Origin: a virus
Direction: 5' to 3' (one strand)
IMG/VR virus record: IMGVR_UViG_3300045988_075135
DNA: 57,983 nucleotides
The notes below the pieces were generated by a model. That model saw only the letters and a list, made by a program, of their open reading frames with translations, had not been told where the DNA came from and made no database searches. Both the position numbers and the translations under genes were made by a program. Shown here piece after piece: positions 19,730 to 42,376 of this stretch. The first letter of the stretch is position 1. Each line of letters begins with the position of its first letter.

Positions 19730-19918
19730 CTATTCGCCCTCCTTGTCTCGTTCTATGGCTTCGTTGATGGCACGGTTAATGAATCCGTTCACGCTCTCGC
19801 CTTTCGCTTCTGCGTGTGCCTGAATCAAATCTTTCCGGCCTTTCGGCACGGTCAGGTTTATTCGGTCGTATGTTCTAGCGATGTACTTGTTTTGCCATTC
19901 TGCCTTGCGATTTGCCAA
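19730..19918 (-). CDS. Ribbon-helix-helix (Arc/CopG-type) repressor, paralog 1
   Basis: TTG start with an AAGGAGGG SD. YDRINLTVPKGRKDLIQAHAEAKGESVNGFINRAINEAI reads as a beta-strand plus two helices. Confidence 0.8.
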   Translation of the reverse strand: MANRKAEWQNKYIARTYDRINLTVPKGRKDLIQAHAEAKGESVNGFINRAINEAIERDKEGE

Positions 19919-19959
19919 TGGATTCCCTCCTTCCTTGTATTATTATAGCACCGTTCGCC

Positions 19960-20040
19960 ACGTTGCACAACGTATAGAAAGCAACAAAATACGTTGCGCA
20001 ACGTCGTGCAATCCGTCAATAGAAATACGTTGCGCAACGT
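19960..20040. promoter_or_regulatory. Divergent control region with three copies of the dyad ACGTTGCGCAACGT
   Basis: O1 at 19960-19973 (ACGTTGCACAACGT), O2 at 19991-20004, O3 at 20027-20040. TATAAT at 20043-20048 (+) and its reverse complement at 19942-19947 (-). Confidence 0.6.
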
Positions 20041-20080
20041 GCTATAATATAGCCATCAACTACCGCAAGGAGGCATGGCT

Positions 20081-20212
20081 ATGAAGGAAGTTAGAATGGA
20101 ACTGGTACGGTATATCGACAAGATGGACGAGTGTACGCTTCGGCTGATGCTGGGATTTGTAAAGACGCTTTGCGCAGACGATAAAGCGGAGGTCAAAGAT
20201 GAGGCTTGTTGA
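20081..20212 (+). CDS. Leader-like 43-aa ORF, family member 1
   Basis: AAGGAGG SD. MKEVRMELVRYIDKMDECTLRLMLGFVKTLCADDKAEVKDEAC. Overlaps the next ATG by 14 nt. Conserved in 4 copies. Confidence 0.5.
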   Translation: MKEVRMELVRYIDKMDECTLRLMLGFVKTLCADDKAEVKDEAC

Positions 20213-20810
20213 TTTGACCGGGCAAAGGTTCGGGCGGCTGACCGTTATCGAAAGAGCGCCTAACGTAGGACGCAAGACAATGTGGAAGTGCAAATGCGAT
20301 TGCGGCAATTACACTGTTGTTGGGCAAACCGATTTGCATTCTCAAAGAACAAAGTCATGCGGGTGCATGTTTAAGGAGCAACTGGCTGAACGCAATACAA
20401 AGCATGGCCTTAGCAATACTAGGCTGTGCAGTATTTGGCGGGCGATGAAAGGCCGGTGCGACAATCCTAATAATCGAGCGTATAAGAACTATGGTGGTCG
20501 CGGGATTAAGGTATGCGCTGAGTGGGAAAATGATTTGCAGGCATTTTATTCCTGGGCTATCAGCAACGGCTATACGGATGAGCTTTCCATAGACCGTATA
20601 GATGTAAATGGCAACTACTGCCCAGAAAATTGCCGATGGGCAAGCAAGAATGTGCAGGCGAACAACACAAGAGCCAATCGCTATTTGGAATACAACGGCA
20701 AGCGTCAAACAATAGCACAGTGGGGCGCGGAAACCGGTGTACGGCCGGCGACGATTCGTAGGCGCTTGGAATTAGGATGGACAATCGAAAATGCCTTAAA
20801 GACACCTTAA
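20199..20810 (+). CDS. HNH-like (His-less) putative homing endonuclease / DNA-binding protein, paralog 1
   Basis: LTGQRFGRLTV, cysteine cluster WKCKCDCG...SCGC, YGGRGIKVCAEW, and SIDRIDVNGNYCPENCRWASKNVQANN (compare HNH_3 VDHKDGDRQNN..NLRW). HTH-like C-terminus. Confidence 0.7.
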   Translation: MRLVDLTGQRFGRLTVIERAPNVGRKTMWKCKCDCGNYTVVGQTDLHSQRTKSCGCMFKEQLAERNTKHGLSNTRLCSIWRAMKGRCDNPNNRAYKNYGGRGIKVCAEWENDLQAFYSWAISNGYTDELSIDRIDVNGNYCPENCRWASKNVQANNTRANRYLEYNGKRQTIAQWGAETGVRPATIRRRLELGWTIENALKTP

Positions 20811-20824
20811 TCGGTGTCTTTTTT
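20799..20824 (+). terminator. Intrinsic terminator with the gene's stop codon in the loop
   Basis: aagacacc-ttaatc-ggtgtctt followed by tttt. TAA at 20808-20810 lies in the loop. Confidence 0.7.
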
Positions 20825-20848
20825 AATTGAAAGGTGGTGATGCGACAT

Positions 20849-21357
20849 ATGAGTGTAAAGTATACCACAAAAAAAGATGGCTTCCCCAAGATGCAGAAAC
20901 AGCTTGGAGTGCTGAGCGGAGAAGGTATCGAAGTAGGCGTACTAAAAGGCGAATCGGCATGGTTCGCCTCGATACACGAATATGGTTAGGCTGTGACATT
21001 CCCGTCACCAAGAAAATGCGCAAGTATCTGGCGGCGCGCGGGCTGTACCTGAGCAAGAATACCACGCACATCCACATTCCGGAGCGCTCCTTCCTGCGAA
21101 CCGGCTATGACCAGAATATCGACGACGTTAAGAAAAAGGCGGCGCTGCTGGTAGGCGAAGTCGCCAAAGGGCATATGACGGCGCGCGGGTGTATGCAGGC
21201 CGTGGGTATGGATTTGGCGAGCAAGATAAAGGATTATGCGCGCGATCTGGACAGCCCGCCGAACCATCCGTTTACGGTCGAGCAGAAAGGCTCAAGCAAT
21301 CCGCTGGTTGATACCGGCGATATGATAGGCGGCATTAGCTGGAGGGAAGCGAAATGA
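20849..21357 (+). CDS. HK97 gp10-family tail-completion protein, interrupted by an in-frame TAG at 20987 and continuing in the -1 frame
   Basis: Frame A is MSVKYTTKKDGFPKMQKQLGVLSGEGIEVGVLKGESAWFASIHEYG*. The -1 frame continues (L)GCDIPVTKKMRKYLAARGLYLSKNTTHIHIPERSFLRTGYD.... Together they look like one gp10-like protein. Confidence 0.6.
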
Positions 21358-21719
21358 GCAGACAATATTTCGATTTTGACAGCCTGATTGAAGATTTCGC
21401 CAATCCGTTCACCGTGATAACCCACACAGACGGCGCTTATGACAGTAGCGGCGACTGGCGAGAGGGCACCGAAACGCGCACGGAATACACCGGCGCGATT
21501 ATCGCCTTCAAGGAAAGCAAGGTATTCCGCTCCGAGGGCGCAATCACGGCCAAGGACAGGCGGCTGTTCATGCGTAAGAAGCTCCCTGACGCGCTTATTG
21601 GTGCCAAAGTGGAGTACGGCGGACAAACGTACATGATTGAAAGCGAGCTGGAGAACGCCGAGTTTACCGGTGTGTACAGCTACATGCTAAGGTGGGTGAG
21701 CGCGTTTGATACCGTATAG
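21354..21719 (+). CDS. Neck / head-tail joining protein (family not assigned)
   Basis: 121 aa, coupled to the upstream gene (ATGA), within the neck module. Confidence 0.55.
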   Translation: MSRQYFDFDSLIEDFANPFTVITHTDGAYDSSGDWREGTETRTEYTGAIIAFKESKVFRSEGAITAKDRRLFMRKKLPDALIGAKVEYGGQTYMIESELENAEFTGVYSYMLRWVSAFDTV

Positions 21720-22188
21720 CAAGATGCGCGCGGCCATTGCCGGGGGGCTTAAAGACTACCTCGGCGTGCCTGTCATTCGCGGCAATCAGACCGCGCCGCG
21801 CCCGCCCTACCCTTTCGTGGCGTACAACGTGACGACCATCGCCGGGCAAAATGGCGGCTCGTGGCAGGAGCATGAGGACGCGGACCGCAAGCTGGTGCGC
21901 AGCATATGGAGCATAACGGCTCTGTCCAAGGACTGGGACGAGAGCGTCAATCTGGCAGTCAAGGCGCGGCAGTGGTTTGAACATACTGGCCGCGCGGCGC
22001 TGTCCGATCAGGGCTTTACCGTACAGTCAACGACCGACATAACCAACCGTGACAACATACTGACCGTCGAATATGAGCGCATGAACGGCTTCGACGTGTT
22101 CTTCTACGTCTACGATGAAGCGGAGCGCATATCCGACATAAACGGCCATATCGAAACGGCTGATATAACAAGGGAAGAAACGAATTGA
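21706..22188 (+). CDS. Putative tail terminator / neck protein
   Basis: 160 aa directly upstream of the sheath-like gene. TTG 21706 or ATG 21724. Confidence 0.55.
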   Translation: MIPYSKMRAAIAGGLKDYLGVPVIRGNQTAPRPPYPFVAYNVTTIAGQNGGSWQEHEDADRKLVRSIWSITALSKDWDESVNLAVKARQWFEHTGRAALSDQGFTVQSTTDITNRDNILTVEYERMNGFDVFFYVYDEAERISDINGHIETADITREETN

Positions 22189-22207
22189 CCCAAAGGAGGA
22201 ATTGACT

Positions 22208-23215
22208 ATGGCTTTTGACGTAAAAGTCAACATTGACCTGTCCAAACCCGTGGGCTCGGTGGGCTTTGGCATACCGCTGATACTCGTCGAAAATGCCTCT
22301 GCTGCTGTCGCCTACACCGAGGTATCGAGCATGGCGGAGGTCATAACCGCGGGCTTTGCCGCCACGACCGACACATACAAGGCGGTACAGCTCATGTTTG
22401 CGCAGCAGCACGCGCCGAAGTCGGTTGCGGTCTGCGCCGTAACCGGGGACGCGCCTACTGCCCTAGCGGACGACATACTTATCGCCAAAGAGTGGAGGCA
22501 GCTCATCGTGCTTAACGATGGCGACACTGCCAGCACTGTGACGGCAATCAGCACGGCGGTTGAGGCGCTGGACGGCAAGCTGTACTTCGCGGGCCTTGAG
22601 ACCGACGACAGCACCAGCATTACCGTGTCCGGCCTGCGCCGCACGATACTGTTCTACTGCGATAAGACAGACAGCGTGCCGGTGCCCGTGGCCGCGTTTG
22701 TGGGCGAATCCTGCGGTCGCGAGGCGGGCAGCTTTACTTACAAGAACATGACCCTTACCGGTGTGGCTGCGCAGGCGCTCACCGACGCCCAGATCAACGC
22801 CATACATGCCAAGGGCGGCATTACGTTCATCGCCAAAGCTGGCGACAACGTTACTTCCGAAGGCAAGGTTGCCGGGGGCGAGTACATCGACATCATCGAC
22901 AGCGAGGACTACATCGTCCAGCAGCTCGCGTACAAGACGCAGAAGCTGCTTAACGGGGCGGCCAAAGTGCCTTACGACAACAACGGCATTGCCATGTTGG
23001 AAAGCGTGGCCGTTGACGTGCTACAGGGCGCGTACAACAACGGCATGATTGATACCAACGAGGACGGTACACCCGCCTATACCGTGGCTTACGCACTGCG
23101 TGCGGACACTACGGCAGACGACCGCTCCAACCGCAAGTATCTGGGCGGCAAGTTCAGCTTCGCGCTGGCCTGCGCCATACATCAGGTGGAGATTACCGGC
23201 AGCATTAACGTTTAA
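22208..23215 (+). CDS. Putative tail sheath protein (DUF3383-like)
   Basis: ATG follows AAGGAGGA. 335 aa, lying between the neck genes and the tube/chaperone/tape-measure genes. Family assignment is from memory. Confidence 0.55.
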   Translation: MAFDVKVNIDLSKPVGSVGFGIPLILVENASAAVAYTEVSSMAEVITAGFAATTDTYKAVQLMFAQQHAPKSVAVCAVTGDAPTALADDILIAKEWRQLIVLNDGDTASTVTAISTAVEALDGKLYFAGLETDDSTSITVSGLRRTILFYCDKTDSVPVPVAAFVGESCGREAGSFTYKNMTLTGVAAQALTDAQINAIHAKGGITFIAKAGDNVTSEGKVAGGEYIDIIDSEDYIVQQLAYKTQKLLNGAAKVPYDNNGIAMLESVAVDVLQGAYNNGMIDTNEDGTPAYTVAYALRADTTADDRSNRKYLGGKFSFALACAIHQVEITGSINV

Positions 23216-23229
23216 GGGAGGGAAAACGC

Positions 23230-25135: not shown

Positions 25136-26051
25136 AGACTGTGCCATTGCCGAGCGGCATAAACCTCGTGAAAACGGTGAAACCCCAAACGGATAGTACC
25201 GTGGGCAATACCGTGCGAAGCGTGAAATTGCACTTGACAATCCGGTATTTGCGCAGTAAAATAAAAATAGCAAATACGTGGAGGGCGTCGAGATGATTTG
25301 GAAAAAGATTAAGCAGAATGAGAATTATTCTATCAATGAGCTTGGCGAAGTTCGCAACGATTTGACCGGAGCACTGAAAAAGGCGTACACCAACGCGGCG
25401 AACGGCTATAATTACGTTGATTTGTGGGCAGGTAACAAGTCAACGAAGTGTGCCATTCACAGACTGCTGGCGGAAGCGTTTATTCCTAATCCGGATGGCA
25501 AGCCTACCGTCGATCATAAAGACGGCGATAGGCAAAACAATTCGTTGCAGAACTTGCGCTGGGCAACATATGCAGAGCAGAACAGCCGGTTTAATTCAAC
25601 CGGTGTAAGGAGCCAGAAAGTAAAAGTCACCCACTACGCGGAGAAACGGAAAAAGCGTGGCGGAGGGCATGAAGCATGGCTTGATGCTGACGGCATTATG
25701 TATTTTGATAGGATAACGGATGCTGCTGATTACTTTGGCCTGACAATCGGTTCCATCTCTCTCCTACTCAAGGACGGAAACATCGGGAGACGAGGCAAGA
25801 CCAGAGGGTACAGGTTTGAGTATCTTGACGGTAGCAGAGTGCAATTTCATGAACGTGTAACGACTACCGAAACGGCGGAGGAATCCGAAACGGAGTAGGG
25901 TACACCCAAGCGGGTGGAAGTGCGAGGCCCTGCGCAAGCAGGTGAAGAGATAGTCTGAACTGCATGGAAACATGTAGCTGGGCAAAGGAGCACCCTTCGG
26001 GGTGCTTTTTTATGCCCGGATGCAGCCTAGCGAACTGCATTGAACATTATG
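25136..26051 (+). mobile_element. Group I intron (916 nt) carrying an HNH homing endonuclease ORF
   Basis: The 5' exon ends in U and the intron ends in G. P1: exon gctcggt (25129-35) pairs with intron gccgagc (25149-55), including the U.G pair. P10: gccat (25143-47) pairs with exon 2 atggc (26053-57). S-like element aagagatagtc at 25945-55. Confidence 0.8.
25293..25898 (+). CDS. Intron-encoded HNH homing endonuclease (NUMOD4 + HNH_3 type, I-HmuI-like)
   Basis: NENYSINELGEVRN, AIHRLLAEAFIPNPDGKPTVDHKDGDRQNNSLQNLRWATYAEQN. Confidence 0.9.
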   Translation: MIWKKIKQNENYSINELGEVRNDLTGALKKAYTNAANGYNYVDLWAGNKSTKCAIHRLLAEAFIPNPDGKPTVDHKDGDRQNNSLQNLRWATYAEQNSRFNSTGVRSQKVKVTHYAEKRKKRGGGHEAWLDADGIMYFDRITDAADYFGLTIGSISLLLKDGNIGRRGKTRGYRFEYLDGSRVQFHERVTTTETAEESETE

Positions 26052-29000
26052 TATGGCGGCACGCAGGAAGAAATGAAACGCCTGCTAAAGGACGCTGGCA
26101 AGCTGGCGGGCAAGAAGTTTGACATTAAGAACTACTCCGACATAATCGAGGCCATTCACGTCATTCAGGACGAAATGGGCATTACCGGCACGACCGCTGA
26201 GGAAGCTGATAAGACCATTTCCGGTTCGTTCAATTCGATGAAGGCGGCGTGGAGCAACACGCTCGTCAGCCTTGTGGTCGGCGGTGATTCTTTCGACGAC
26301 TGCATTGACAACCTCGTGGATTCCGCGAAAACCTTTGCAAAAAACGTCATGCCCGCTATCGTCAAGGCGCTGGAGGGCATGGGCGATCTGATAGAGGCGC
26401 TGGCTCCGATTCTCGAAAAAGAGCTGCCCGGCATTATTGATTCGCTGCTTCCCCCGCTGATTAAGGCGGCGACGGCGCTTGTAAAGGGCCTTATTAAGGC
26501 ATTGCCCAGCATCATATCCGCGATAGTGGACGAGATACCGTTTATCCTGCGCGAGCTGTGGGACGGCATCAAGGACGCATTCGGCGAGATACCGGGCATG
26601 AAGAAGGTCGAAACCTTTTTCGGCAAGCTGAATAAGGTATTCACGAAAAACGCGGATAAGCTCAAGAAGATAATCCCCGTGGTTATCGGCCTTATTGGCG
26701 CATTCAAGCTGCTCAAGAAGCTGAAAGGTCTGGGCAGTCTGCTGGGCGGTGTGCTCGGCAAGGGCACCGGCGGCAGCAGCGGCGGGCTGCTCGGCACGTT
26801 TACCAAGCTCGGCAAAACGAAAATGAGCGTCATACTCAAGGGTATGGCGAACCTTGCCATAATACTGGGCGGCCTTACGATACTGGCGGCGGCGCTGATG
26901 TATGTCGCGCCATATATGGCTAGGCTAACGGACGTCAAGTCGCTGGTTAAGGTGCTGGCGGTTATCACCGCGCTGGGGCTGATAGGCTCCGGGCTGGCGA
27001 AATTGGCCGGCATCGTGGGCAAGATACCCGTTGCGACGGTAGCAAAGGGCCTTGCCAACATTGCAATCATCATGGTGGGGCTTGGAGCGCTGACGGCGGT
27101 GCTCATGTGGGTGGCGCCGTATATCGCGGAGCTGTCCGACCTGCGAACCGTGGCAAAGCTGCTGATCGTGATTGCGGCCGTGGGCGTCGTAGGCTCGGCG
27201 CTGGCGGGGCTGGCGGGGCTTGTAGGTGCGATACCGATTACGCTGGTGCTGGAGGGACTTGCCAACATCGCGCTGGCGCTGGGCGGCGTGACGGCCATTA
27301 TAGCCGCGTTCGGCGCGCTCTCGATGATAGACGGCTTTAACGAGTTCATTTCGTCGGGCGGTGAAACGCTCAAGACCATATTCAACATCATAGGCCAGTG
27401 CGCAGGTGCGGTCATAGGCGGCTTTGGCGAGGGCGTATCCGAATCCTTGCCCGCCATAGGCGAGAATCTGGCGGCCTTCGGCACGGCTATTCAGCCGCTA
27501 TTCACCTCATTCTCCGGCATTGATCTGACCGGGTTTAACGACTTTCTGGGTGCCTTCTCCCGGTTCGTGCTGGTCATGACGGGTGAAAAGGTATTGAGCT
27601 TTATTACCGGCGGCGTCAACTATGCCGATCTGGGCACACAGCTTACCGCCTTTGCCGACAATGCAGCGGGGTTCTTTACCACTGTGGCGGCAATACCCGA
27701 GGCGGCGTTCACCAATATCACGCTGCTGTTCAACGCACTGGCGGGCGTAAATGCGCTGCCTAAGGAAGGCGGATTGCTAAGTTGGTTTACCGGGGAATCG
27801 ACCACAGGTATGGCCAACATAGCGGCCAACCTGCCGACACTGGCAACCAGCATATCCTCGTTCATGACCAACCTGGGCGACATAACCGACTTTACGCCGC
27901 TGTCATCCTTGTTCACCGTGCTGAGCGGCGTGAGCGCATTGCCCCAAGAGGGCGGGCTATTTAGCTGGTTCACGGGCGAATCGACAACCGGCATGGCGAA
28001 TATCGCGGCCAATTTGCCGATGCTGGCAACGAGCGTCGCCACCTTCTTTGCAAACCTCGGGGGCATTGCGGACTTTACGCCTATCTCTAGCCTGTTTAAT
28101 ACGCTGGGCAGTGTGAGCGCGTTGCCAAAAGAAGGCGGGCTTATGTCGTGGTTTGCGGGCGATTCCACCGAGGGCCTTGCAAACGTGGCCGCACAGCTTC
28201 CGGGGCTTGCTACAAGCGTGGGCGCGTTCTTTGCCAATCTGGGCGGTGTAACCGACTTTACGCCTATATCGTCGCTGTTCACGGCGCTGGGCGGCATAAC
28301 GGCAATGCCTAAAGAGGGCGGCATAAGCTCGTGGTTCGGCGGCGATTCTTCGACCGGCCTTTCCAACGTGGCAAGCCAGCTCCCCGGTGTAGCGTCCAGC
28401 ATTTCGACGTTCTTTGCCAACTTGGGCGGCATAACGGATTTCACGCCAATTGCAGACCTGTTTAATACACTCAGCTCGATAAAGGTTGATTCGACCGCAG
28501 CGGATAAACAGGGATGGCTCGCGTGGGCCGGAGCGGGCACCAGCCAACTTGAGGACCTTGGCACTGCACTTTCTGCCTTCGCAACCAATGCGGCAACGTT
28601 CTTCGATACGGTGAACGGCCTGAACACCGAAAACCTTGACAGCTTCTTTACGACCGTGGGCAAGGCGGGCGATCTGCCGGACGCGCTGTCGGGCATTGAC
28701 AGCGAGCTGGGCACGCAGATGTCCAATATGGTTACGACCATCGAGACCGGCTTTACCAACGTTAAGACGGCGCTTACATCGGCTGTCAGCAGCATGGTGC
28801 AGACCTGCAACGACAAGTACAACGCCTTCCAGACGGCAGGTGCATATATGATGTCGGGCCTCAAGGCAGGCATGGAGAGCAAGCTGTCCTCGCTGGTAAC
28901 TACTGCACAGGCAATGGCGAGCAAGATACAAAAGGCGTTTGACGTCAAGATGCAAATCAACTCGCCGTCGAAGGTCATGTTTGAGAAAGGCTCCTATGTT

Positions 29001-29294: not shown

Positions 29295-29304
29295 AAAGGG
29301 AGGG

Positions 29305-29499
29305 CTATTCGCCCTCCTTGTCGCGTTCTATGGCTTCGGTGATGGCTCTGTTGATGAATCCATTCACGCTCTCGCCTTTCGCTTCTGCGTGTGCCTGAAT
29401 CAAATCTTTCTTTCCCTTAGGCATTGTAAGATTGATTCTGTCGTAATTTGCGGCCATGTATTTGTTGACCGCCTTTTGCTGGGCTTTACTTGTTGCCAT
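29305..29499 (-). CDS. Ribbon-helix-helix repressor, paralog 2
   Basis: ATG 29499 follows AAAGGAGGTG. MATSKAQQKAVNKYMAANYDRINLTMPKGKKDLIQAHAEAKGESVNGFINRAITEAIERDKEGE. The track's 210-aa ORF is an upstream over-extension. Confidence 0.8.
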   Translation of the reverse strand: MATSKAQQKAVNKYMAANYDRINLTMPKGKKDLIQAHAEAKGESVNGFINRAITEAIERDKEGE

Positions 29500-29535
29500 C
29501 AAAGCACCTCCTTTATGCAATATTATAGCGCATTT

Positions 29536-29620
29536 ATATATCTGTGCATATAGACGTATTACACATATTTGCGCAGATATATTCTGTGAATCCGTCAATA
29601 GATATATTTGCGCAGATATA
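29536..29620. promoter_or_regulatory. Divergent control region with three copies of the near-dyad ATATTTGCGCAGATATA
   Basis: 29565-29581 and 29604-29620 are identical. An inverted degenerate copy (atatatctgtgcatata) lies at 29536-29552. TACAAT at 29622-29627. Confidence 0.6.
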
Positions 29621-29659
29621 CTACAATATAGCCACGAACCAATGGAAAGGGGTACGGCT

Positions 29660-29791
29660 ATGAAGGAAGTTAAAACGGAACTGGTACGGTATATCGACAA
29701 GATGGACGAGTGTACGCTTCGGCTGATGCTGGGATTTATAAAGGCGCTTTGCGCAGACGATAAAGCGGAGGTCAAAGATGAGGCTTGTTGA
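29660..29791 (+). CDS. Leader-like 43-aa ORF, family member 2
   Basis: MKEVKTELVRYIDKMDECTLRLMLGFIKALCADDKAEVKDEAC. Overlaps the next ATG by 14 nt. Confidence 0.5.
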   Translation: MKEVKTELVRYIDKMDECTLRLMLGFIKALCADDKAEVKDEAC

Positions 29792-30395
29792 TTTGACCGG
29801 GCAAAGGTTCGGAAGGCTGACGGTGCTTCGCCGGTATGAGAAAAACAACGGTCAGGGGAAACCGCTATGGCTTTGCAAATGCGATTGCGGGCACGAAACG
29901 GTTGCCGCTGGATATTCGCTGAAAAGTGGGAATACAACGTCCTGCGGCTGTTACAAAACCGAACATCCGAACCGTACTAAACATTCTGGCTGTGGAACAA
30001 GGCTATACCGAATTTACAAGAACATCAAGCAGCGTTGTTACAACACAAAATCGCCAATTTACAAGTATTACGGCGCGCGTGGCATCGTGATGTGTGATGA
30101 ATGGGAGAACAGTTTCGAGGCTTTCCGTGATTGGGCGTATTCAAACGGTTACAGGGATACTGATAAACGTTCCGAATACACTATTGACCGCATCGACGTG
30201 AACGGGAATTATTGCCCCGACAACTGCCGATGGGCGTCTCAGAAAGTCCAAACGCGCAATACGCAGCGCACAAGATATGCAACATGCGACGGAGTTACTA
30301 AATCAATCGGTGAATGGGCTGAAGAATGGGGTGTACCGTACAACACAGTATATTTCAAAGCACGGCGGAACAATTGGACTTTAAGCGCACCGTAA
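29778..30395 (+). CDS. HNH-like (His-less) putative homing endonuclease / DNA-binding protein, paralog 2
   Basis: MRLVDLTGQRFGRLTV, WLCKCDCGHE...SCGC, YGARGIVMCDEW, TIDRIDVNGNYCPDNCRWASQKVQTRN. Confidence 0.7.
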   Translation: MRLVDLTGQRFGRLTVLRRYEKNNGQGKPLWLCKCDCGHETVAAGYSLKSGNTTSCGCYKTEHPNRTKHSGCGTRLYRIYKNIKQRCYNTKSPIYKYYGARGIVMCDEWENSFEAFRDWAYSNGYRDTDKRSEYTIDRIDVNGNYCPDNCRWASQKVQTRNTQRTRYATCDGVTKSIGEWAEEWGVPYNTVYFKARRNNWTLSAP

Positions 30396-30408
30396 CGGTG
30401 CGCTTTTT
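30384..30408 (+). terminator. Intrinsic terminator with the stop codon in the loop
   Basis: agcgcaccg-taa-cggtgcgct followed by tttt. TAA at 30393-30395 forms the loop. Confidence 0.7.
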
Positions 30409-30410
30409 AC

Positions 30411-31280
30411 GTGGAGGTGGGTCAAATCGCATTAATCAATAATATGTATATCCATGTTACGGATGAATCAGCTTCGCGGGAGGTGGACGCCACCTCCCAC
30501 CCCGTTGAAAGCGGCATACCCATTACAGATACGGTCAAGCCTAAAGCCCTCACAATCTCGCTGTCGGGCAAAATAGTGGACTACGGCGGCACCAAGGCGC
30601 AGCAGGTCATTGACAAGATAAAAAGCTGGCAGGACAGCGGCTCGCTTATAACGTACCGGGGGCGGAACAATGCCAGCAATATGCAGGTTCGCAGCTTCAA
30701 CACCGACCATCCGAACACCAACAGCGGCGGCGCGGACTTCTCGCTGGAGCTGGAGCAGGTGCGCATCGCCAAGAGTGCATACGCGCCGAAAAAGGCCTCC
30801 AGTGGCAGCACGTTCAGCGCGGCAAGCATAAAGGTAGGCTCGAAGGTTATCTTCAAGGGCGGACCGGTATACGTTGCGTCCGACGCTAAAAAGGCGGCGG
30901 CCACGCGCGGCCGGAGCACCTGCAAGGTAACTATCATCAATACCCGGAGCTGGGGCGTGCATGACTACCACCTCATATCAACCGACGGCGGCAGGGTGTA
31001 CGGCTGGGTTGATTTCAAAAACATCGAGGGCTGCGCGCAGACCGGCACAAGCGGCACGACCAACGCGGGCACGCAGCAAGTGAGCAGCGGTTCCGGCTCG
31101 GCGGTGTATCACACCGTCAAGAAGGGTGATACAGTCTGGGCGCTTGTGAACAAAAAATACAAATACCTGGGCAAATCCGAAAGCTGGGTTATCAATAATA
31201 ACCCGAAAGCCTTCTCGCGCAAGGGAGACGCGCGAACGCTCCAGATAGGCAGAAAGCTGCTTATGGGCTATAAAAAGTAA
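30411..31280 (+). CDS. Tail protein with SH3-like and C-terminal LysM domains (XkdP-like)
   Basis: LysM: VYHTVKKGDTVWALVNKKYKYLGKSESWVINNNPKAFSRKGDARTLQIGRKLLM. The GTG start abuts the cassette terminator. No clear SD; the first in-frame ATG is at 30444. Confidence 0.7.
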   Translation: MEVGQIALINNMYIHVTDESASREVDATSHPVESGIPITDTVKPKALTISLSGKIVDYGGTKAQQVIDKIKSWQDSGSLITYRGRNNASNMQVRSFNTDHPNTNSGGADFSLELEQVRIAKSAYAPKKASSGSTFSAASIKVGSKVIFKGGPVYVASDAKKAAATRGRSTCKVTIINTRSWGVHDYHLISTDGGRVYGWVDFKNIEGCAQTGTSGTTNAGTQQVSSGSGSAVYHTVKKGDTVWALVNKKYKYLGKSESWVINNNPKAFSRKGDARTLQIGRKLLMGYKK

Positions 31281-31291: not shown

Positions 31292-31615
31292 ATGGAGACA
31301 CCTGACACGCTTGAAATAAATAAAGAGCTGCTCCCCTACACCTGCGACATGCTGCTGGCCGGGGAGCTGTTCACGCTGAAAGTAAATTACAACGCGACCG
31401 CCGACCTGTTCACGCTGGACCTGTACAAGGACGGCGCGCTGATCTGCGCCGGGGAACCTGTCATTTATGGTGTAAGGCTCTGGCAAGACGTTTACAACCC
31501 GGAGCTGTTCCCCGCCGTGGACATCATCCCGACAGACCCTTCCGGCGAAAGCGATACGGTAACGTTTGACAATCTGGGCAAAACCGTACTGCTGATTATC
31601 GATAATGGCGAATAA
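31292..31615 (+). CDS. Hypothetical tail-module protein
   Basis: 107-aa track ORF with AAGGAGG upstream. No family recognised. Confidence 0.55.
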   Translation: METPDTLEINKELLPYTCDMLLAGELFTLKVNYNATADLFTLDLYKDGALICAGEPVIYGVRLWQDVYNPELFPAVDIIPTDPSGESDTVTFDNLGKTVLLIIDNGE

Positions 31616-31625
31616 AAAGGAAGGG

Positions 31626-31814
31626 CTATTCGCCCTCCTTGTCGCGTTCTATGGCTTCGTTGATGGCACGCTTGATGAAGCCGCCAATGGTTTCACCTCT
31701 TGCGGCGGCATGTTCTTTGATGACTTCTTTCTGCCCTTTGGGAACTTGCAGACGGATGTCGTCATAGGCTTTCTTCGCATAGGCGTTGTTGATTTCCGAG
31801 CGGGTCTTTGCCAC
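31626..31814 (-). CDS. Ribbon-helix-helix repressor, paralog 3 (divergent beta-strand)
   Basis: GTG 31814 lies 5 nt after AAGGAGGTG. (M)AKTRSEINNAYAKKAYDDIRLQVPKGQKEVIKEHAAARGETIGGFIKRAINEAIERDKEGE. Confidence 0.75.
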   Translation of the reverse strand: MAKTRSEINNAYAKKAYDDIRLQVPKGQKEVIKEHAAARGETIGGFIKRAINEAIERDKEGE

Positions 31815-31860
31815 GGAATCACCTCCTTCATGCAATATTATAGCCGGTTCTCATGTAAAT

Positions 31861-31936
31861 GTACATGTACCAAGTAACCAACAATGTACATGTATCTTTG
31901 GCGGGTCCGTCAATAGATAAGTATATGTACATGTAC
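31861..31936. promoter_or_regulatory. Divergent control region with three copies of ATGTACATGTAC (palindrome GTACATGTAC)
   Basis: Copies at 31861-31870, 31886-31895 (GTACATGTAT) and 31927-31936. TATAAT at 31937-31942 directly abuts the third copy. Confidence 0.6.
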
Positions 31937-31974
31937 TATAATATAGCCATCAACTACCGCAAGGAGGCATGGCT

Positions 31975-32106
31975 ATGAAGGAAGTTAAAACGGAACTGGT
32001 ACGGTATATCGACAAGATGGACGAGTGTACGCTTCGGCTGATGCTGGGATTTGTAAAGACGCTCTGCGCAGACGATAAAGCGGAGGTCAAAGATGAGGCG
32101 TGTTGA
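31975..32106 (+). CDS. Leader-like 43-aa ORF, family member 3
   Basis: MKEVKTELVRYIDKMDECTLRLMLGFVKTLCADDKAEVKDEAC. Overlaps the next ATG by 14 nt. Confidence 0.5.
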   Translation: MKEVKTELVRYIDKMDECTLRLMLGFVKTLCADDKAEVKDEAC

Positions 32107-32722
32107 TTTGACCGGGCAGAGGTTCGGGCGGCTGACCGTTATCGAAAGAGCCGAAAGTCAAACTCGGAGCGACGGCTCAAAAATATCGCGCTGGCTGTGC
32201 AAATGCGATTGTGGAAATACCAAGATTGTACGACAGAGCAACCTCGTAAGCGGGCACATTAAGTCGTGTGGATGTCTTAGGATTGAAAAAACGATTGCCC
32301 GTAATCAGATCCATTGCGAATCCTACTCCCGCGTTTATACGATTTGGGAAAACATTAAACAGCGTTGCTTTGATTCCAAGTGCAAAAACTACGCTCGGTA
32401 TGGCGGCAGGGGCATAACGCTTTGCGATGAGTGGCGGTATAGTTTTGAGGCATTCCGCGACTGGGCAATGAAGAACGGGTACAACGACACAATGTCAATC
32501 GACCGCATAGACAATAACGGCAATTACGAACCAATAAATTGTCGCTGGGTATCGAATAAGGTTCAGGCGAACAATCGGCGGAGCAACCGCATGATAACAT
32601 ACTGTGGCAAAACACAAACGCTATCACAATGGGCCGATGAACTAGGCATTGACTACAAGCGATTATGGGCAAGATTATACAAATGCAACTGGCCGATAGA
32701 AAAGGCATTTAAGGCACCCTGA
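32093..32722 (+). CDS. HNH-like (His-less) putative homing endonuclease / DNA-binding protein, paralog 3
   Basis: MRRVDLTGQRFGRLTV, WLCKCDCGNT...SCGC, YGGRGITLCDEW, SIDRIDNNGNYEPINCRWVSNKVQANN. Confidence 0.7.
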   Translation: MRRVDLTGQRFGRLTVIERAESQTRSDGSKISRWLCKCDCGNTKIVRQSNLVSGHIKSCGCLRIEKTIARNQIHCESYSRVYTIWENIKQRCFDSKCKNYARYGGRGITLCDEWRYSFEAFRDWAMKNGYNDTMSIDRIDNNGNYEPINCRWVSNKVQANNRRSNRMITYCGKTQTLSQWADELGIDYKRLWARLYKCNWPIEKAFKAP

Positions 32723-32736
32723 CGGGCGCCTTTTTT
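32711..32736 (+). terminator. Intrinsic terminator with the stop codon in the loop
   Basis: aaggcaccc-tgac-gggcgcctt followed by tttt. TGA at 32720-32722 lies in the loop. Confidence 0.65.
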
Positions 32737-32757
32737 ATTTTGAAAGGGGGTGGTTTT

Positions 32758-33668
32758 ATGAGTAGCACCTCGAAATTGGTTAATAACGGAGAAAACAGAC
32801 TTCGCTCGGCACTGGTACAAGCGTTTGAAAGCTGGACAACGCCCTATGACATTCGGCCAGACGGCGTATTCGGCAGCATGGCTATAATCAAGAGCGGGCA
32901 AGTTACTATTTCTTCGGAGACTTTGGACATTGAATTTCAGGTGCCTTTCTAGGGTCTGACGACGACGTCGAACCCAACGAAGCGGAGATAAAGGTATACA
33001 ACCTGTCAAACAATACGCTCAAGCAGCTTAAAAAGGGCGCGGCCATATCCGTATCGGCGGGCTACAAGGGCGACACCGGCGTGCTGTTCAGCGGCTTTAT
33101 ATCCAAGATAAAAACCGTCCACGAGGGCGCGGACAAGGTGACGAGCATCAACGCGATGGACGACATAAAGGACCATACCGTGGAAAGCATCGCGTTCGCC
33201 AAAGGGACGAAGGCCAGCTACATTCTCAAAAAGCTGATTGACAAGACCGGCATTCCCGTGGCGGTATTCAGCCCGCGGCGCGATTACACATACAAGGATT
33301 CCCAGACCGTGGACGGCGATCTGATGGAGAATATCAGCCGGTACGCCAAGGTGTGCGGCATATCCGTATACGTGAGCAAGGGCAAGATTTATGCGCGCTA
33401 CATCAAAAACGGCGACAACATCAATTTCACGGTTTCCAGCGAGACCGGCCTGATAGGCTCGCCCAGTCCCTTTGAGGAGGAAGTGACCGCCGAGGACTTT
33501 ACCGAAACGGTGAGCGGCTACGAAGTCGAAATGCTGCTGCAACACCGCATGTGTGCGGGCGCAATCGTGGCACTAAAGAGCGTGGACGCGACCGGCACTT
33601 ACCGCGTATGCAAGGGCGAGCACCGCTTCTCCGCGTATGAGGCCATTACCAAGTTCAAAATGTACTAA
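32758..33668 (+). CDS. XkdQ-like baseplate/tail hub protein, interrupted by an in-frame TAG at 32950 and continuing in the -1 frame
   Basis: Frame Y reads MSSTSKLVNN...SSETLDIEFQVPF*. The -1 frame continues (L)GSDDDVEPNEAEIKVYNLSNNTLKQLKKGAAISVSAGYKGDTGVLFSGFI... through to 33668. Confidence 0.6.
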
Positions 33669-38258: not shown

Positions 38259-38270
38259 GGTGGTGAACAC

Positions 38271-38624: not shown

Positions 38625-38694
38625 ATTGCTTACAGGCGCATTGAATGCGCTGGTAATAACATATTGTGCCGTAAGGCACAGGAAGGACGGTATC

Positions 38695-38859
38695 ATGGAT
38701 ATGCTTAAGGTACTTTTCGCGTCTAAGGTTCTCATGGGGCAGATGGAGTTTGAGGCGGTTCCGCGCCTGCTTAAACCGGGCGTGGCACAGGAGATTATCG
38801 ATGCGGGTATGCCGGAGCTTGTGCCGGTAGAGTACGGCGGGACGTTGGCCGCAGAGTAA
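38695..38859 (+). CDS. Small XkdX-like protein (54 aa)
   Basis: ATG 38695 follows AGGAAGGA (alternative ATG at 38617). The last gene before the endolysin, as xkdX is in PBSX. Confidence 0.45.
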   Translation: MDMLKVLFASKVLMGQMEFEAVPRLLKPGVAQEIIDAGMPELVPVEYGGTLAAE

Positions 38860-38938
38860 TCCTTTGCGGACATGCGGTTTCTAAGACGACGACGGGGCGG
38901 CAGCAATGCCGCCCTTATCATTTTGCGAGGTGAGATAA

Positions 38939-39955
38939 ATGGCGGATAAAAGAATGCCGATTGGCAAGTTCGTTACTGAACTGAAAGCGGCGCTCAAACG
39001 CAAAGACGGCTATATCATGGGCAGCAAAGGCCAGAACCCGAAAAAGTGGGCAAAGGACAGTTGGTGGTTTACGCAGTACAGCGGCGAGCAAAAGGAAAAG
39101 GCGCTGTACTGGCGCGAGCACGCGGCCCGCGTCTGGGACTGCAACGGCATGGCCGAGGGTATTTATGAGGACTATACCGGCGTAAACATCAACACGAAGG
39201 CGCGCTACAATTACGCGAACTGGTGCGGCACCAAGGGCAGCGGCACCATACCGGCGCAATACCGCGTGCCGGGCGCGGCGGTGTTTATTCGCTCCGCTAA
39301 GGCGGGCTACATTACGCACGTGGGCTATCTGGTCGAGCCTGTCAACGGCTCGAAACCTACCGGCGACTGGTGGGTTATCGAAGCGCGCGGCGTGATGTAC
39401 GGTGTCGTTAAGACAAAGCTGTCGGCGCGTGGTTGGAACCGCTGGGGTCTCATGACTAAATATTTTGATTACGACCATGCTGCCACGGAACGCGATCCGC
39501 AGCTCGGCGACCGCATTCTAAAGAACGGTTCCGAGGGTGCCGACGTGAAGGCGCTGCAATCTGCGCTCATCCGTCTGGGCTACAACTGCGGGCGCTGGGG
39601 CGCTGACGGCGACTTTGGCGATGCAACGGAGATGGCCGTTACTGCGTTCCAGCAAGACCACGGCTGCACGGCGGACGGCGATTTCGGGCCGGTGACGTAT
39701 GCCGCGCTGAAAAAGGCGCTGGCGGCGCTGGACGACAACTCCGCAGTAACCTCACCGCGCACGGTGCGCATAGTCGGCGGCAACTGCTGGGTGCGCTCGG
39801 AGCCGAACACCAGCGGGAGCAAGCTGGGCGTGGTGGCCGACGGCGATACGTTTGCCTACGGCGGCCAGACGGCGAGCAACGGATGGCATAAGATTAAGTT
39901 GAATGATGGCCGCCTTGGATGGGTATCGGGCAAATACAGCAGGTTGGAGGGCTAA
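38939..39955 (+). CDS. Endolysin: NlpC/P60-like peptidase + PG_binding_1 + SH3 domains
   Basis: Cys in VWDCNGMAEGIY and His in GYITHVGYL. PGB: GSEGADVKALQSALIRLGYNCGRWGADGDFGDATEMAVTAFQ. SH3-like: VRSEPNTSGSKLGVVADGDTF...WHKIKL. Confidence 0.85.
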   Translation: MADKRMPIGKFVTELKAALKRKDGYIMGSKGQNPKKWAKDSWWFTQYSGEQKEKALYWREHAARVWDCNGMAEGIYEDYTGVNINTKARYNYANWCGTKGSGTIPAQYRVPGAAVFIRSAKAGYITHVGYLVEPVNGSKPTGDWWVIEARGVMYGVVKTKLSARGWNRWGLMTKYFDYDHAATERDPQLGDRILKNGSEGADVKALQSALIRLGYNCGRWGADGDFGDATEMAVTAFQQDHGCTADGDFGPVTYAALKKALAALDDNSAVTSPRTVRIVGGNCWVRSEPNTSGSKLGVVADGDTFAYGGQTASNGWHKIKLNDGRLGWVSGKYSRLEG

Positions 39956-39958
39956 GAT

Positions 39959-40288
39959 ATGGAGCAAATAACTCTATCGGACGCCTGGGGCTGGGTGCTG
40001 GCCGCTGCCACGGCTGTTGTCGCACTATCCAAGGCGTGGGAAATACTCAAGAAAAAACTCCATCCGGAGGCGGACATGAGAGAAGAGATCAGGAAACACT
40101 CGCAAAACCTTGCCACTGACGACCGACGGCTGAAACGGCTGGAAGAAAAGCAGGAAGATACGGAGCGTTTTCAGGCCGTCATGTGCCGCGTTATGCTGGC
40201 GCAGCTCAATCACGAGCTGTCCGGCAACGACGTGACAAGCCTTAAAAAGGCAAGGGACGAACTGAACGAATATCTGACAGCCAGATGA
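39959..40288 (+). CDS. Lysis-module membrane protein (N-terminal TM + coiled coil)
   Basis: WGWVLAAATAVVALSKAW is a TM segment, followed by a charged coiled coil. Lies between the endolysin and the holin. Confidence 0.5.
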   Translation: MEQITLSDAWGWVLAAATAVVALSKAWEILKKKLHPEADMREEIRKHSQNLATDDRRLKRLEEKQEDTERFQAVMCRVMLAQLNHELSGNDVTSLKKARDELNEYLTAR

Positions 40289-40302
40289 AGGAGGAATAAC
40301 GT

Positions 40303-40536
40303 ATGAAGGATGTAAAGAAGTGGTTCAAAGCCGCGGGAATCCGGGCGATTAAAACGGTAGCGCAGACGGCTGCGGCGACCATTGGAACGAGCGCCGTACT
40401 GGGCGACGTCAACTGGGTGATGGTAGCGTCTGCCGCGACACTGGCGGGCATACTGAGCCTGCTTACATCGGTGGCGGGTCTGCCTGAGGTGGACACGGGC
40501 ACGCTTGAGGATGACGAGGGCGACGAAGAAGAATGA
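40303..40536 (+). CDS. Holin (LL-H-like)
   Basis: 77 aa. KWFKAAGIRAIKTVAQTAAATIG and a second TM segment WVMVASAATLAGILSLLTSVAG. Acidic tail. Confidence 0.7.
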   Translation: MKDVKKWFKAAGIRAIKTVAQTAAATIGTSAVLGDVNWVMVASAATLAGILSLLTSVAGLPEVDTGTLEDDEGDEEE

Positions 40537-40540
40537 GAAA

Positions 40541-40576
40541 ACGCGGGGCTGCATTGTGCGGCTCCGCGGTTTTTTT
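40541..40576. terminator. Bidirectional terminator at the end of the late operon
   Basis: acgcggggc...gctccgcgg followed by ttttttt. Also ends the convergent minus-strand gene. Confidence 0.6.
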
Positions 40577-40853
40577 ATTTGGCCTCCGGGTGCGATGATT
40601 CCCAAGGCGCGGCGTCTCGCTCGTCGTCCGTTGGGTTGCTCGCCCACAGTCTCCACGTTTTAGCATACGTATCGGCGCGGTAGTCCCAGAAGCCATACGT
40701 AATCATATCATACACAGTCCCCCAACCAATACGAATGCAGCGCCTATACATCAGCTTTTCCATGTACAGATATGGTGCAGTTGTATATGGCCAAGAGCGT
40801 CCGCCCTCCGATTCTATCTGATTAAGGTTTTCAAGCGTTAGCGGCTTTTGCAT
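40575..40853 (-). CDS. Hypothetical moron protein (92 aa)
   Basis: ATG 40853 lies 8 nt after AAGGAGGG. No family recognised. Confidence 0.55.
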   Translation of the reverse strand: MQKPLTLENLNQIESEGGRSWPYTTAPYLYMEKLMYRRCIRIGWGTVYDMITYGFWDYRADTYAKTWRLWASNPTDDERDAAPWESSHPEAK

Positions 40854-40980
40854 GTCTTGTTCCCTCCTTAATTTCTTGTCCTGCACATTTTACCGTTTAA
40901 GAGCAACTGTGCCGACGCTTATAACGTAAGGTACATGTTAATAAGCTAAAGAGAGGCGGGAGGTTTGCGCCTCCCGCCGA

Positions 40981-41388
40981 TCAGTTCTCCTTTATAACCA
41001 CGTCGTCGAAAAAGGCGAAAAGCTGATTGAAGCGGTTGTAATAATTCCATTCAACGCCGGATACAATCTGCGCAAGCGGGACTGTTTCGCCTTCCACCGT
41101 TCCGCAGTTAGAATAATAGCCGTTGAGCATGACGGCACAGTAATCTTCCTTGACGATTTCCTGCATTCTCTGCATGTCCTCCGCTTCAAAGCGGTATCCT
41201 TCACCATAGTCCCCATCTTCTGCCCAGAATACTTCTGCATTCCAAGAACGGCCATTGCGCCAGATTGCTACCCATGCAATACCGCACTCGATTTCGTACT
41301 TATTTCTCCTGCATACTTCCTTCAATGCCGCCATAACGTTCCTACCTTTCTCCCGGTCTATCGCCCGGTCGGGAGGGCTGATACTCAT
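40981..41388 (-). CDS. Hypothetical protein (second gene of the RHH4-controlled operon)
   Basis: ATGA coupling with the upstream gene at 41388 (alternative ATG at 41334). No family recognised. Confidence 0.55.
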   Translation of the reverse strand: MSISPPDRAIDREKGRNVMAALKEVCRRNKYEIECGIAWVAIWRNGRSWNAEVFWAEDGDYGEGYRFEAEDMQRMQEIVKEDYCAVMLNGYYSNCGTVEGETVPLAQIVSGVEWNYYNRFNQLFAFFDDVVIKEN

Positions 41389-42002
41389 CAGCCCCAGTAC
41401 ATCCGAAGCTCGCCGTTGTACATTTCGTAACCCATCGTGCAGTTGCCCCGAATGTTGAACAGGATGTAGTTCCAGTCGGAGGCGTTGTACAGAGCCTTGC
41501 GCTCGTAGGTGCCGACCTTGCGCAGCGCCCTGCTGCGGTTTATCTCGTACTTGGGAACCTCGTGGACTATCACTATCTTGCTCCTGTCGAATCCGAAGTC
41601 GCTTGCAATCATGTCCGCCGCTTCCTCATCGCTCAGCTCCTCGGTGAAGGAGGCGGAGGCCAGTTGCTCGTAGTCGGCCTGCTTTACGTTGTGCTCGTCC
41701 TCATACGGTGCCCAGCCCTGCTCGCGTTCGAGCTTTTCTTCCAACCGCTTGATTTGCTCTTGCTGCATCAGAATATCCTTCTTCAGCGACTTTATATGAT
41801 TCTCAAGCTCCTCGGTCTTTCTCACCTCATTCATCATTCCATTCCGCTGAATCTTCTGGGCTATGCCATTCTTGTTTTGCTTGTAAGCCTCGCAGAATGC
41901 TTTCTTGTCGCCGTCGAACTCCATGTAGGCGGCCTCAATCGCCTTGTACATCGTTGCGGTCGGGTAAATACCAGTCATCTCTTCAAACTCACACATCATC
42001 AT
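41388..42002 (-). CDS. Hypothetical protein, 204 aa (first gene of the RHH4-controlled operon)
   Basis: AAGGAGGA SD. Central coiled coil (ENHIKSLKKDILMQQEQIKRLEEKLERE). No family recognised. Confidence 0.6.
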   Translation of the reverse strand: MMMCEFEEMTGIYPTATMYKAIEAAYMEFDGDKKAFCEAYKQNKNGIAQKIQRNGMMNEVRKTEELENHIKSLKKDILMQQEQIKRLEEKLEREQGWAPYEDEHNVKQADYEQLASASFTEELSDEEAADMIASDFGFDRSKIVIVHEVPKYEINRSRALRKVGTYERKALYNASDWNYILFNIRGNCTMGYEMYNGELRMYWG

Positions 42003-42053
42003 TGTTTTGTTCCTCCTTGTTTTGTTTGCCCCTTGCTTATGTGCTTATTATAC

Positions 42054-42135
42054 GCTTACTTGCGCAAGTAAGCAATCGGCGAAATGGCTAAACATCCATG
42101 TGCTTACTTGTGCAATATGCTTACTTGCGCAAGTA
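42054..42135. promoter_or_regulatory. Divergent control region with the GCTTACTTGCGCAAGTAAGC dyad (perfect 20-bp palindrome) plus two further copies
   Basis: 42054-42073 is perfect, 42102-42115 is degenerate (TTGTGCAA core), and a third copy lies at 42119-42135. TATACT at 42149-42154 (+). The reverse complement of TATAAT at 42047-42052 (-). Confidence 0.6.
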
Positions 42136-42181
42136 TAGAAAAGGGTGCTATACTGGCAATAGTAACGAAGGAGGGGTACTT

Positions 42182-42376
42182 ATGGGCGGTAGAGCAAGCG
42201 CGGCATCCAAGAACAAGTGGAACGAAAAGGCATATGACCGGATTAACTTAACCGTCCCCAAGGGGCACAAGGACGTCATTAAGAAGCACGCGGATGAGCG
42301 CGGAGAATCAGTCAATGGATTCATTGCGCGGGCCATAGCAGAGACTATGGAGCGGGATCAACGAGCTGGAGGATAA
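42182..42376 (+). CDS. Ribbon-helix-helix repressor, paralog 4
   Basis: MGGRASAASKNKWNEKAYDRINLTVPKGHKDVIKKHADERGESVNGFIARAIAETMERDQRAGG. GAAGGAGGGG SD. The stop TAA lies in the loop of ggagga-taa-tcctcc, followed by a T-run. Confidence 0.8.
   Translation: MGGRASAASKNKWNEKAYDRINLTVPKGHKDVIKKHADERGESVNGFIARAIAETMERDQRAGG

Follow-up and report, generated by a model that had tools for sequence, protein, structure and literature searches.

Four small ribbon-helix-helix (RHH) genes, each facing a control region with three copies of a dyad of its own, lie in the viral contig IMGVR_UViG_3300045988_075135 of IMG/VR (57,983 nt, analysed over its whole length and referred to here as the window). We read units 1-3, with genes R1, R2 and R3, as mobile cassettes of the free-standing homing endonuclease type, each with a private repressor, and unit 4, with R4, as a resident switch of the same family; we put the probability of this reading at roughly 0.7. 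To compare insertion sites we used three sibling phage contigs (086537, 048148 and 052893), whose flanking DNA is 93-99% identical to the window.

Units 1-3 are inserts of ~1.1-1.2 kb between late structural genes: cassette 1 (19718-20829, plus strand) between the gene after that for the major head protein and a neck/tail-completion gene; cassette 2 (29295-30444, plus strand) between the tape-measure gene and the tail gene that follows it; and cassette 3 (31611-32799, plus strand), which includes the replaced 5' end of the downstream gene, between two genes of the baseplate region. The order of parts in a cassette is a divergent RHH gene and a terminator belonging to it (for RHH1 at 19722-19744, minus strand), a control region of ~150 nt with three operators between two back-to-back promoters, a small 43-aa ORF (S), an overlapping HNH-like gene (C), a terminator and a replacement start of the next late gene. 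GC content is 0.48-0.50 in the cassettes compared to 0.55-0.59 in the surroundings (for cassette 1, 0.48 compared to 0.55-0.58). The S ORFs (S1, an acidic 43-aa ORF, at 20081-20212; S2 at 29660-29791; S3 at 31975-32106; all plus strand) overlap the start of the endonuclease gene by 14 nt and share about 97% nucleotide identity from cassette to cassette. They matched no family in Pfam, PHROGs or NCBIfam, and their homologues form just two clusters among 5.8 billion proteins. C1, C2 and C3 follow at 20199-20810, 29778-30395 and 32093-32722 (plus strand). The terminator after C1 is at 20798-20821 (plus strand), and terminator-like hairpins are also seen on the plus strand after C2 (about 30386-30409) and C3 (about 32712-32735). 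As these hairpins come right after the endonuclease genes and lie within the late structural operon, transcription of the late genes has to pass them or start anew. A new ribosome-binding site for the gene downstream likewise comes with each cassette.

Every one of the three sites has an empty allele. Site 1 is empty in siblings 048148 and 052893, with a junction joining window positions 19717 and 20830, and sites 2 and 3 are empty in all three siblings. Sibling 086537, for its part, holds a fourth cassette at a site that is empty in the window (site 0, 4598-4637). It comprises S, an RHH resembling R2 and an endonuclease with 50% identity to C3, and the beginning of the gene downstream is recoded there too. 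At every occupied site, identity to the empty allele is 0.9-1.0 in the upstream flank as far as the junction; on the other side it is 0.43-0.83 over the first 30-150 nt and then returns to about 1.0. At site 1, the recoded 5' end of the downstream late gene (20849-21000, plus strand) has 0.67-0.83 identity over the first 150 nt, then 0.87-1.0; at site 2, the first ~11 codons of the downstream gene (30411-30444, plus strand) are recoded within cassette 2. Free-standing homing endonuclease genes, such as seg and mob of phage T4, are typically recognised as intergenic inserts with sequence divergence beside them, and both traits are found here: cleanly present or absent intergenic inserts and, in the carriers, a diverged target flank. 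The initial annotation, which had described the four RHH units from the sequence of the window, did not recognise units 1-3 as mobile cassettes.

The cargo proteins C1-C3 (~205 aa) match phrog_374, annotated 'HNH endonuclease', with E values of 9e-80, 2e-70 and 6e-79, respectively; C1, PVL ORF-50-like and a putative free-standing homing endonuclease, shares about 47-52% amino acid identity with C2. The AlphaFold2 (AF2) model of C1 (pLDDT 91.8) contains a ββα element at residues 130-154, and the best PDB match of the family profile, I-HmuI (1U3E, E 0.027), aligns exactly on this element. The invariant D132-R133 of C1 aligns with I-HmuI D74-H75, so that the general-base His is replaced by Arg. 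This weakens the case for an active endonuclease, as do several other observations. Arg is invariant at the I-HmuI His75 position in 43 diverse family members; C1-C3 match no Pfam or NCBIfam nuclease family, with a sub-threshold match to CapR only; the >7900 members of their family are unnamed; a single-sequence PDB search with C1 gave no matches; and Foldseek with the whole C1 model against PDB returned noise only (E at least 0.15). On sequence grounds, nuclease activity of C1-C3 is thus doubtful.

These points could also be accommodated if the cargo proteins were not nucleases but HNH-derived DNA-binding regulators or defence/counter-defence 'morons', with the cassettes moving by ordinary homologous recombination between mosaic phages. 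The invariant Arg and the lack of a match to a curated nuclease family would fit such proteins, as would the zinc-ribbon and HTH-like DNA-binding modules that the cargo protein carries and the mixed names of the BFVD neighbours of C1 (HNH, HTH homing endonuclease, PVL ORF-50-like, AP2 and 'DNA-binding domain protein'). We nonetheless consider this explanation unlikely, since insertion between genes of conserved late operons, clean presence or absence and a diverged adjacent tract are standard for free-standing homing endonucleases, the slot is filled in two relatives (L019 and L021) by canonical NUMOD4+HNH_3 enzymes, again preceded by this RHH/operator/small-ORF module, and the ββα topology is kept in the cargo model.

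At the nucleotide level the cassettes are mosaics, in which two parts, S plus leader and the 3' end of the RHH gene plus terminator, have about 97-100% identity, while the operators and the N-terminal halves of the RHH genes differ. The same parts are found in other combinations in other phages. At site 1, sibling 086537 and an ENA contig (L028, L177) carry C1 (98% identical) with R3 and unit 3 operators, and at site 2, two other contigs (L180, L181) carry C2 (93% identical) with an identical R1 and unit 1 operators. An RHH is always accompanied by its cognate operators, beside an unchanged S and a changing endonuclease, which points to the RHH protein, rather than S or the endonuclease, as the reader of the operators. 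These comparisons show directly that RHH-plus-operator modules are exchangeable units, recombined via the near-identical S ORF and the RHH 3' end/terminator; the S ORF may double as a homology arm for module swapping. In relatives the module also fronts Bro-N/ANT antirepressors (L001, L018), an ORF6N-domain protein or early-gene clusters.

The initial annotation had taken the four units for a specificity-swap series that insulates otherwise similar switches within one genome, which would mean that a single switch was duplicated to four copies here and that these diverged in strand, arm and operator to avoid cross-regulation. Four different specificities do coexist in this genome, the helices and tails of R1-R3 are nearly identical, and no operator type is shared within any genome or locus with several RHH genes (the window, 086537, L171, L133, L136, L146 and L037), though few such coincidences are expected by chance anyway. 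However, divergence in place is improbable: cassettes 1-3 are missing from near-identical siblings, the R1 and R3 modules recur unchanged in other phages, where they stand at different sites and beside different endonucleases, and dozens more specificities are found in unrelated contigs. Moreover, near-identical S and RHH 3' ends beside diverged endonucleases fit recent recombination better than old duplication, and the identical copies elsewhere suggest that R1-R4 are not one another's exclusive closest relatives. Mobile cassettes and the recurrence of their modules in other phages thus indicate that the variety of specificities comes from a pool shared by the phage population rather than having arisen within this genome. 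Insulation may simply follow from this, or may have been selected as a benefit.

The RHH genes themselves are R1 (19730-19918, minus strand, TTG start, 62 aa, strand RINLTV), R2 (29305-29499, minus strand, ATG start, 64 aa, RINLTM), R3 (31626-31814, minus strand, GTG start, 62 aa, DIRLQV) and R4, the resident repressor gene (42182-42376, plus strand, ATG start, 64 aa, RINLTV), whose terminator is at 42363-42387. Beginning with the residues PKG, R1 and R2 differ at just two positions (R to K and N to T), as had been noted earlier. All four match phrog_13890 (E 1e-16 to 1e-25); R1 (22.6 bits) and R2 (22.0) exceed the Pfam threshold for Arc (20.4 bits), and R3 and R4 score below the Pfam thresholds. 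The family profile matches the PDB entries 2K1O (E 3e-4), Arc and AmrZ, with marginal similarity to Arc in sequence (E 0.07-0.5). In the AF2 monomer model of R4 (pLDDT 84), in which the strand cannot pair, residues 18-28 are extended, helices span 29-39 and 44-62, and there is an extra N-terminal helix at 4-17. Weak matches to the antitoxin families TacA1, RelB and DUF6290, together with a nuclease-like partner, might suggest a toxin-antitoxin-like pair in which RHH neutralises the endonuclease or S by contact and the operators serve conditional autoregulation only, but this is very improbable given that RHH and cargo genes are divergent rather than in the one operon of type II systems, that the 62-64-aa RHHs end just past helix B without a toxin-binding extension, and that the same RHH serves diverged endonucleases, antirepressors and early genes when a contact-dependent antitoxin should co-vary with its toxin.

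The existence of the four genes and of three private dyads in each facing control region, both proposed in the initial annotation, is borne out by the ORFs and by dyad counts compared with the expectation from shuffles. Unit 1 has operators at 19960-19973 (weak), 19991-20004 and 20027-20040 (ACGTTGC[G/A]CAACGT; three matches vs 0.03 expected), and unit 2 at 29538-29553 (weak, CTGTGCA), 29565-29580 and 29604-29619 (three copies vs 0.02 expected). Those of unit 3 (31859-31870, 31884-31895 and 31925-31936) consist of ATGTAC tandem hexamers, GTACATGTAC, and the dyad TGTACATGTA is found at 31860, 31885 and 31926 (0.10 expected); with such tandem hexamers the register is ambiguous. Unit 4 has operators at 42054-42073, 42102-42115 and 42119-42136, with the dyad GCTTACTTGYGCAA at 42054/42060, 42102 and 42119 (three copies vs 0.06 expected): the first is a perfect 20-nt palindrome and the middle one is the left arm and core alone (14/20 nt, TTGTGCAA). 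Elsewhere in the 58 kb there are no further copies of any of the four dyads. The operator positions given earlier are essentially right, except that the first copy of unit 2 begins at 29537/8 and not 29536, that for unit 3, where the copies do exist, the positions were those of the inner GTACATGTAC only, and that the middle copy of unit 4 is not a full dyad. Likewise, a weakened centre in one copy per unit was correctly described for unit 1 ([G/A]) and unit 2 (CTGTGCA), but in unit 3 the weak copy differs in the flank and not in the centre.

A promoter scan called a cargo promoter on the plus strand in each cassette, all three with a 17-nt spacer: TAGAAA at 20020 and TGcTATAAT ending at 20048 in cassette 1, TAGATA at 29599 and TACAAT ending at 29627 in cassette 2, and TAGATA at 31914 and TATAAT ending at 31942 in cassette 3. 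The last operator of each cassette abuts this promoter, in agreement with the initial annotation, and indeed fills the spacer of the predicted promoter. In the opposite direction, -10 boxes were assigned by eye to RHH1 (19942-19947, minus strand) and RHH2 (29522-29527, minus strand), and the weak operator 19960-19973 covers the -35 region of the RHH1 promoter, as the RHH-proximal operator of unit 2 does for the RHH2 promoter. The scan placed the RHH3 promoter (minus strand) at TGTACA 31865-31860 and TATAAT 31842-31837 with a 17-nt spacer, so that its -35 sits within the first unit 3 operator. In unit 4, where both -10 boxes were assigned by eye, operator 42119-42136 covers the -35 region of the RHH4 promoter (-10 TATACT at 42149-42154, plus strand); the earlier placement of this copy upstream of the RHH4 -10 stands, with a distance to TATACT of 12 nt instead of ~14. 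The 20-nt palindrome lies 1 nt from a minus-strand TATAAT (42047-42052), overlooked previously, which is the -10 of the unit 4 cargo promoter and faces the gene at 41388-42002, and unit 4 hence has the same layout as the cassettes. A minus-strand promoter-like match (TTGCCA, 16 nt, TATACT) also lies within unit 4.

Between the middle and cargo-proximal operators of cassettes 1-3 is a conserved ATCCGTCAATAGA (20011-20023, 29590-29602 and 31905-31917), which includes the cargo promoter's -35 hexamer and, taken on the other strand, gives TTGACGG; relatives retain TC[AT]AT[AT]GAC at this position. We considered the conserved CCGTCAATAGA as a separate factor site or as part of a leftward promoter (TTGACG on the other strand), for which no matching -10 was seen by eye. 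The simplest reading is that the conserved CCGTCAATAGA would be the -35 region of the cargo promoter.

To assess how operators and proteins vary together, we pooled two scans of viral contigs, giving 160 loci, from which an automated search for repeated palindromes yielded 72 distinct arm/strand/half-site triples. The pattern of the first scan (YD[RD]I[NR]L[TQ][VM]) included the β-strand and is therefore biased; the second was helix-only (GES[VLT]N[GAS]FI). Forty-six distinct three-operator regions were compared for operator quality, and in 35 of them the operator nearest the cargo departs least from the symmetric consensus. Mean mismatches are 1.59 for the cargo-proximal, 3.24 for the middle and 2.72 for the RHH-proximal operator, with spacings of about 36 and 31 bp. 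By this measure the 'weakened centre' of the initial annotation is one case of an apparent gradient in operator quality. With the best operator in the spacer of the cargo promoter, and weaker ones toward or over the RHH promoter, the cargo would be silenced first, and the layout suggests that the repressor would limit its own synthesis only at higher concentration, as at the OR region of phage lambda. The function is most likely tight, self-limiting repression of a selfish nuclease. The endonuclease would stay silent in a lysogen and would fire only where the cognate RHH is missing, for example on entry or in co-infection; such burst-on-entry logic, which we infer from the arrangement alone, is the more speculative part of the proposal and one of its weak points.

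Co-variation in the 72 triples was examined by partial Mantel tests with 5000 permutations, which do not correct for shared ancestry. The dyad centre correlates with the strand given the arm (partial r 0.59) and the flank with the arm given the strand (partial r 0.34), values that none of the 5000 permutations reached in either case; the cross terms are not significant (centre with arm given strand, partial r 0.02; flank with strand given arm, partial r -0.21). The co-variation of strand with core and of arm with flank, suggested by the four units of the window, is thus upheld in a wider sample. R[IV]NLTx strands have TGC as the inner half-site in 33/39 cases vs 4/33 for other strands (Fisher p = 5e-10). 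Particular arms illustrate the same division. Proteins with the arm SSAVK[ND][RK][YW]NAK[AT]YD always have the flank ATACT, and among them the centre goes with the strand (TGC with RINLTM, GTA with EIKVRV, TAT with AIPLRV and GAT with QLPIRV); the arm QQKAV[NTS]KY.. has the flank ATAT[CT], with TGC for RINLT, GTC for EIKVRV, AAC for RFGLTM and CAC for RIELTV.

By position, strand residues 1, 3 and 5 have mutual information z values of 9-13 with the three dyad-adjacent bases and about 0 with the flank, and strand positions 2 and 6 have mutual information of about 0. Arm positions -10 and -11, before a conserved N-K-[Y/W], have z values of 7-12 with flank positions 1-4. Profile alignment places R, N and T of RINLT on Q9, N11 and R13 of Arc, which are its base-contacting residues. 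The co-variation is compatible with the RHH mode of binding, in which the β-ribbon of a dimer enters the major groove and every other strand residue contacts bases. We infer that β-strand positions 1, 3 and 5 (R, N and T) would read the central 6 bp, and that the N-terminal arm, predicted to be helical, would read the outer 5 bp on each side, where the two residues before N-K-[Y/W] appear to matter most. As the strand tracks the centre of the dyad and not the middle of the half-site, the simplest arrangement would be one RHH dimer centred on each ~16-bp palindrome, with the arm (predicted helix 4-17) reaching the flanks.

Some observations do not favour this two-part code. The evidence for it is all comparative, with permutations blind to shared ancestry, although an artefact of phylogeny alone would be hard to square with the null cross terms and with the alternation over strand positions 1, 3 and 5. 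In some RINLT-type proteins the centre is atypical or operators are not detectable (for example L116, L098 and the non-divergent L058-L080), and RINVTF proteins keep R, N and T yet have an asymmetric TGCACC centre, which implies that inward-facing residues matter too. Among relatives, in a family of at least 1268 members, there are also longer proteins (L005, L024-L027 and L030-L036) of 122-126 aa with a ~60-aa C-terminal extension past the RHH domain; these have triple operators of the same type, further from the start codon, and the RHH gene is at about 2501-2880 in most of the loci.

A tentative extension of these results, which we regard as possible but would not favour, is that RHH/operator types are 'immunity types' for selfish nucleases, with the natural, separable two-part RHH recognition code as a by-product. 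If so, an incoming cassette would be silenced and unable to home where the resident phage makes the same RHH, rare specificities would be favoured, and an endonuclease would be able to evade resident repression by exchanging its module through the conserved S ORF and the terminator. The code, in which strand positions 1, 3 and 5 would specify the central 6 bp and arm positions -10 and -11 the outer 5 bp, would then be usable for the design of orthogonal repressors.

Parts of this system resemble known ones. In the immI region of phage P22 (Arc/Mnt), small RHH repressors likewise act on operators overlapping back-to-back promoters, and in relatives the switch described here also fronts Bro-N/ANT antirepressors (L001, L018); the cargo in the window, however, is HNH-like in units 1-3 and consists of genes without assigned function in unit 4, and is not ant. 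Arc binds a 21-bp operator as two dimers, whereas here there would be one dimer per 16-20 bp palindrome, with a long arm reading the flanks, and there are three graded operators. As in lambda OR, where the promoters are PR and PRM, the space between two divergent promoters holds three separate operators, with the strongest on the target promoter and a weaker one on the promoter of the repressor itself, a placement that implies ordered occupancy and negative autoregulation. The repressor fold, on the other hand, is RHH and not HTH, operator spacings in lambda are narrower than the ~31-37 bp found here, and nothing here indicates positive autoregulation or a Cro-like antagonist. T4 seg and mob genes share with cassettes 1-3 the insertion between conserved genes, polymorphism among close relatives and divergence beside the insert, and I-TevI, which is autorepressed, is a recognised case of an endonuclease whose expression needs restraint. 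The cassettes additionally carry a repressor gene of their own, acting in trans, along with three operators and a small leader ORF; unlike in seg/mob and I-TevI, the regulatory module is shuffled among cassettes and the catalytic His is replaced by Arg.

Homing endonucleases are usually described as bare genes that borrow promoters of the host genome or phage. Literature searches on homing endonucleases combined with RHH or Arc-like repressors or operators turned up no description of such cassettes. What appears to be new is the regulated, modular endonuclease cassette and the natural two-part RHH recognition series. The closest precedent is a preprint on IS605 elements (10.64898/2026.09.24.754181), according to whose abstract and DNA-recognition section an Arc protein represses nuclease and transposase promoters, with predicted contacts N5/N7/T9 in the same alternate-residue pattern. 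That too is an RHH of a selfish element repressing the nuclease/transposase promoter of its own element, but the element is an insertion sequence with TnpA/TnpB rather than a phage endonuclease cassette, and those two sections of the preprint describe no triple graded operator, arm/flank code or module swapping (10.64898/2026.09.24.754181). Portability of the β-strand is already known from engineered RHH artificial transcription factors with swapped β-strands, in which the strand is a portable specificity determinant (PMC3413123); those are synthetic, whereas here dozens of natural strand and arm variants occur with their cognate sites and a second, separable determinant lies in the arm. A repressor of their own, graded operators, a leader ORF and traded modules would give the selfish nucleases of temperate gut phages a further level of control, and perhaps one of competition. 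With dozens of natural repressor/operator pairs, and two protein segments assigned to two parts of the site, the question of an RHH code becomes directly testable, and the same pairs could supply orthogonal synthetic switches.

Unit 4 differs from the cassettes in its setting. It is a resident switch beside the lysogeny module, and siblings 086537 and 048148 have both the switch and its cargo conserved. Its two cargo genes on the minus strand, C4 (41388-42002; phrog_15742) and C4b (40981-41388; phrog_17847), belong to families annotated as of unknown function and gave no Pfam or NCBIfam match, and none to ANT, Bro-N or KilA. The lysogeny module comprises a serine integrase (44020-45597, minus strand) and a CI-like HTH repressor (45977-46330, minus strand), and because the latter lies upstream of the integrase operon R4 is not the main repressor. 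The window as a whole is a complete temperate myovirus genome, as an exact 119-nt direct repeat at both ends (1-119 and 57865-57983) implies 57,864 bp, either terminally redundant or circularly assembled; its late genes include those for the major head protein (18121-19194), sheath (22202-23215), tape measure and baseplate. Megablast of window positions 19000-43000 against GenBank phages gave no matches.

Three further features of the genome deserve mention. The tape-measure gene is interrupted by a 916-bp insert (25136-26051) with a NUMOD4+HNH_3 ORF (25278-25898); siblings 048148 and 052893 lack it and have a clean junction there that keeps the reading frame. T ends the 5' exon and G ends the insert, and there is a weak Rfam group I intron match at 25808-25977 (25.9 bits; gathering score 50). 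This insert is probably a group I intron carrying its own homing endonuclease. In the same gene (27849-28471), a ~74-nt repeat occurs four times at a spacing of 183 nt with 64-73% identity, corresponding to a 61-aa protein repeat. Finally, the ORF at 43549-44040, which adjoins the integrase, matches just the C-terminal part of Exo_endo_phos (Pfam, E 3e-14) and may be a fragment or short variant.

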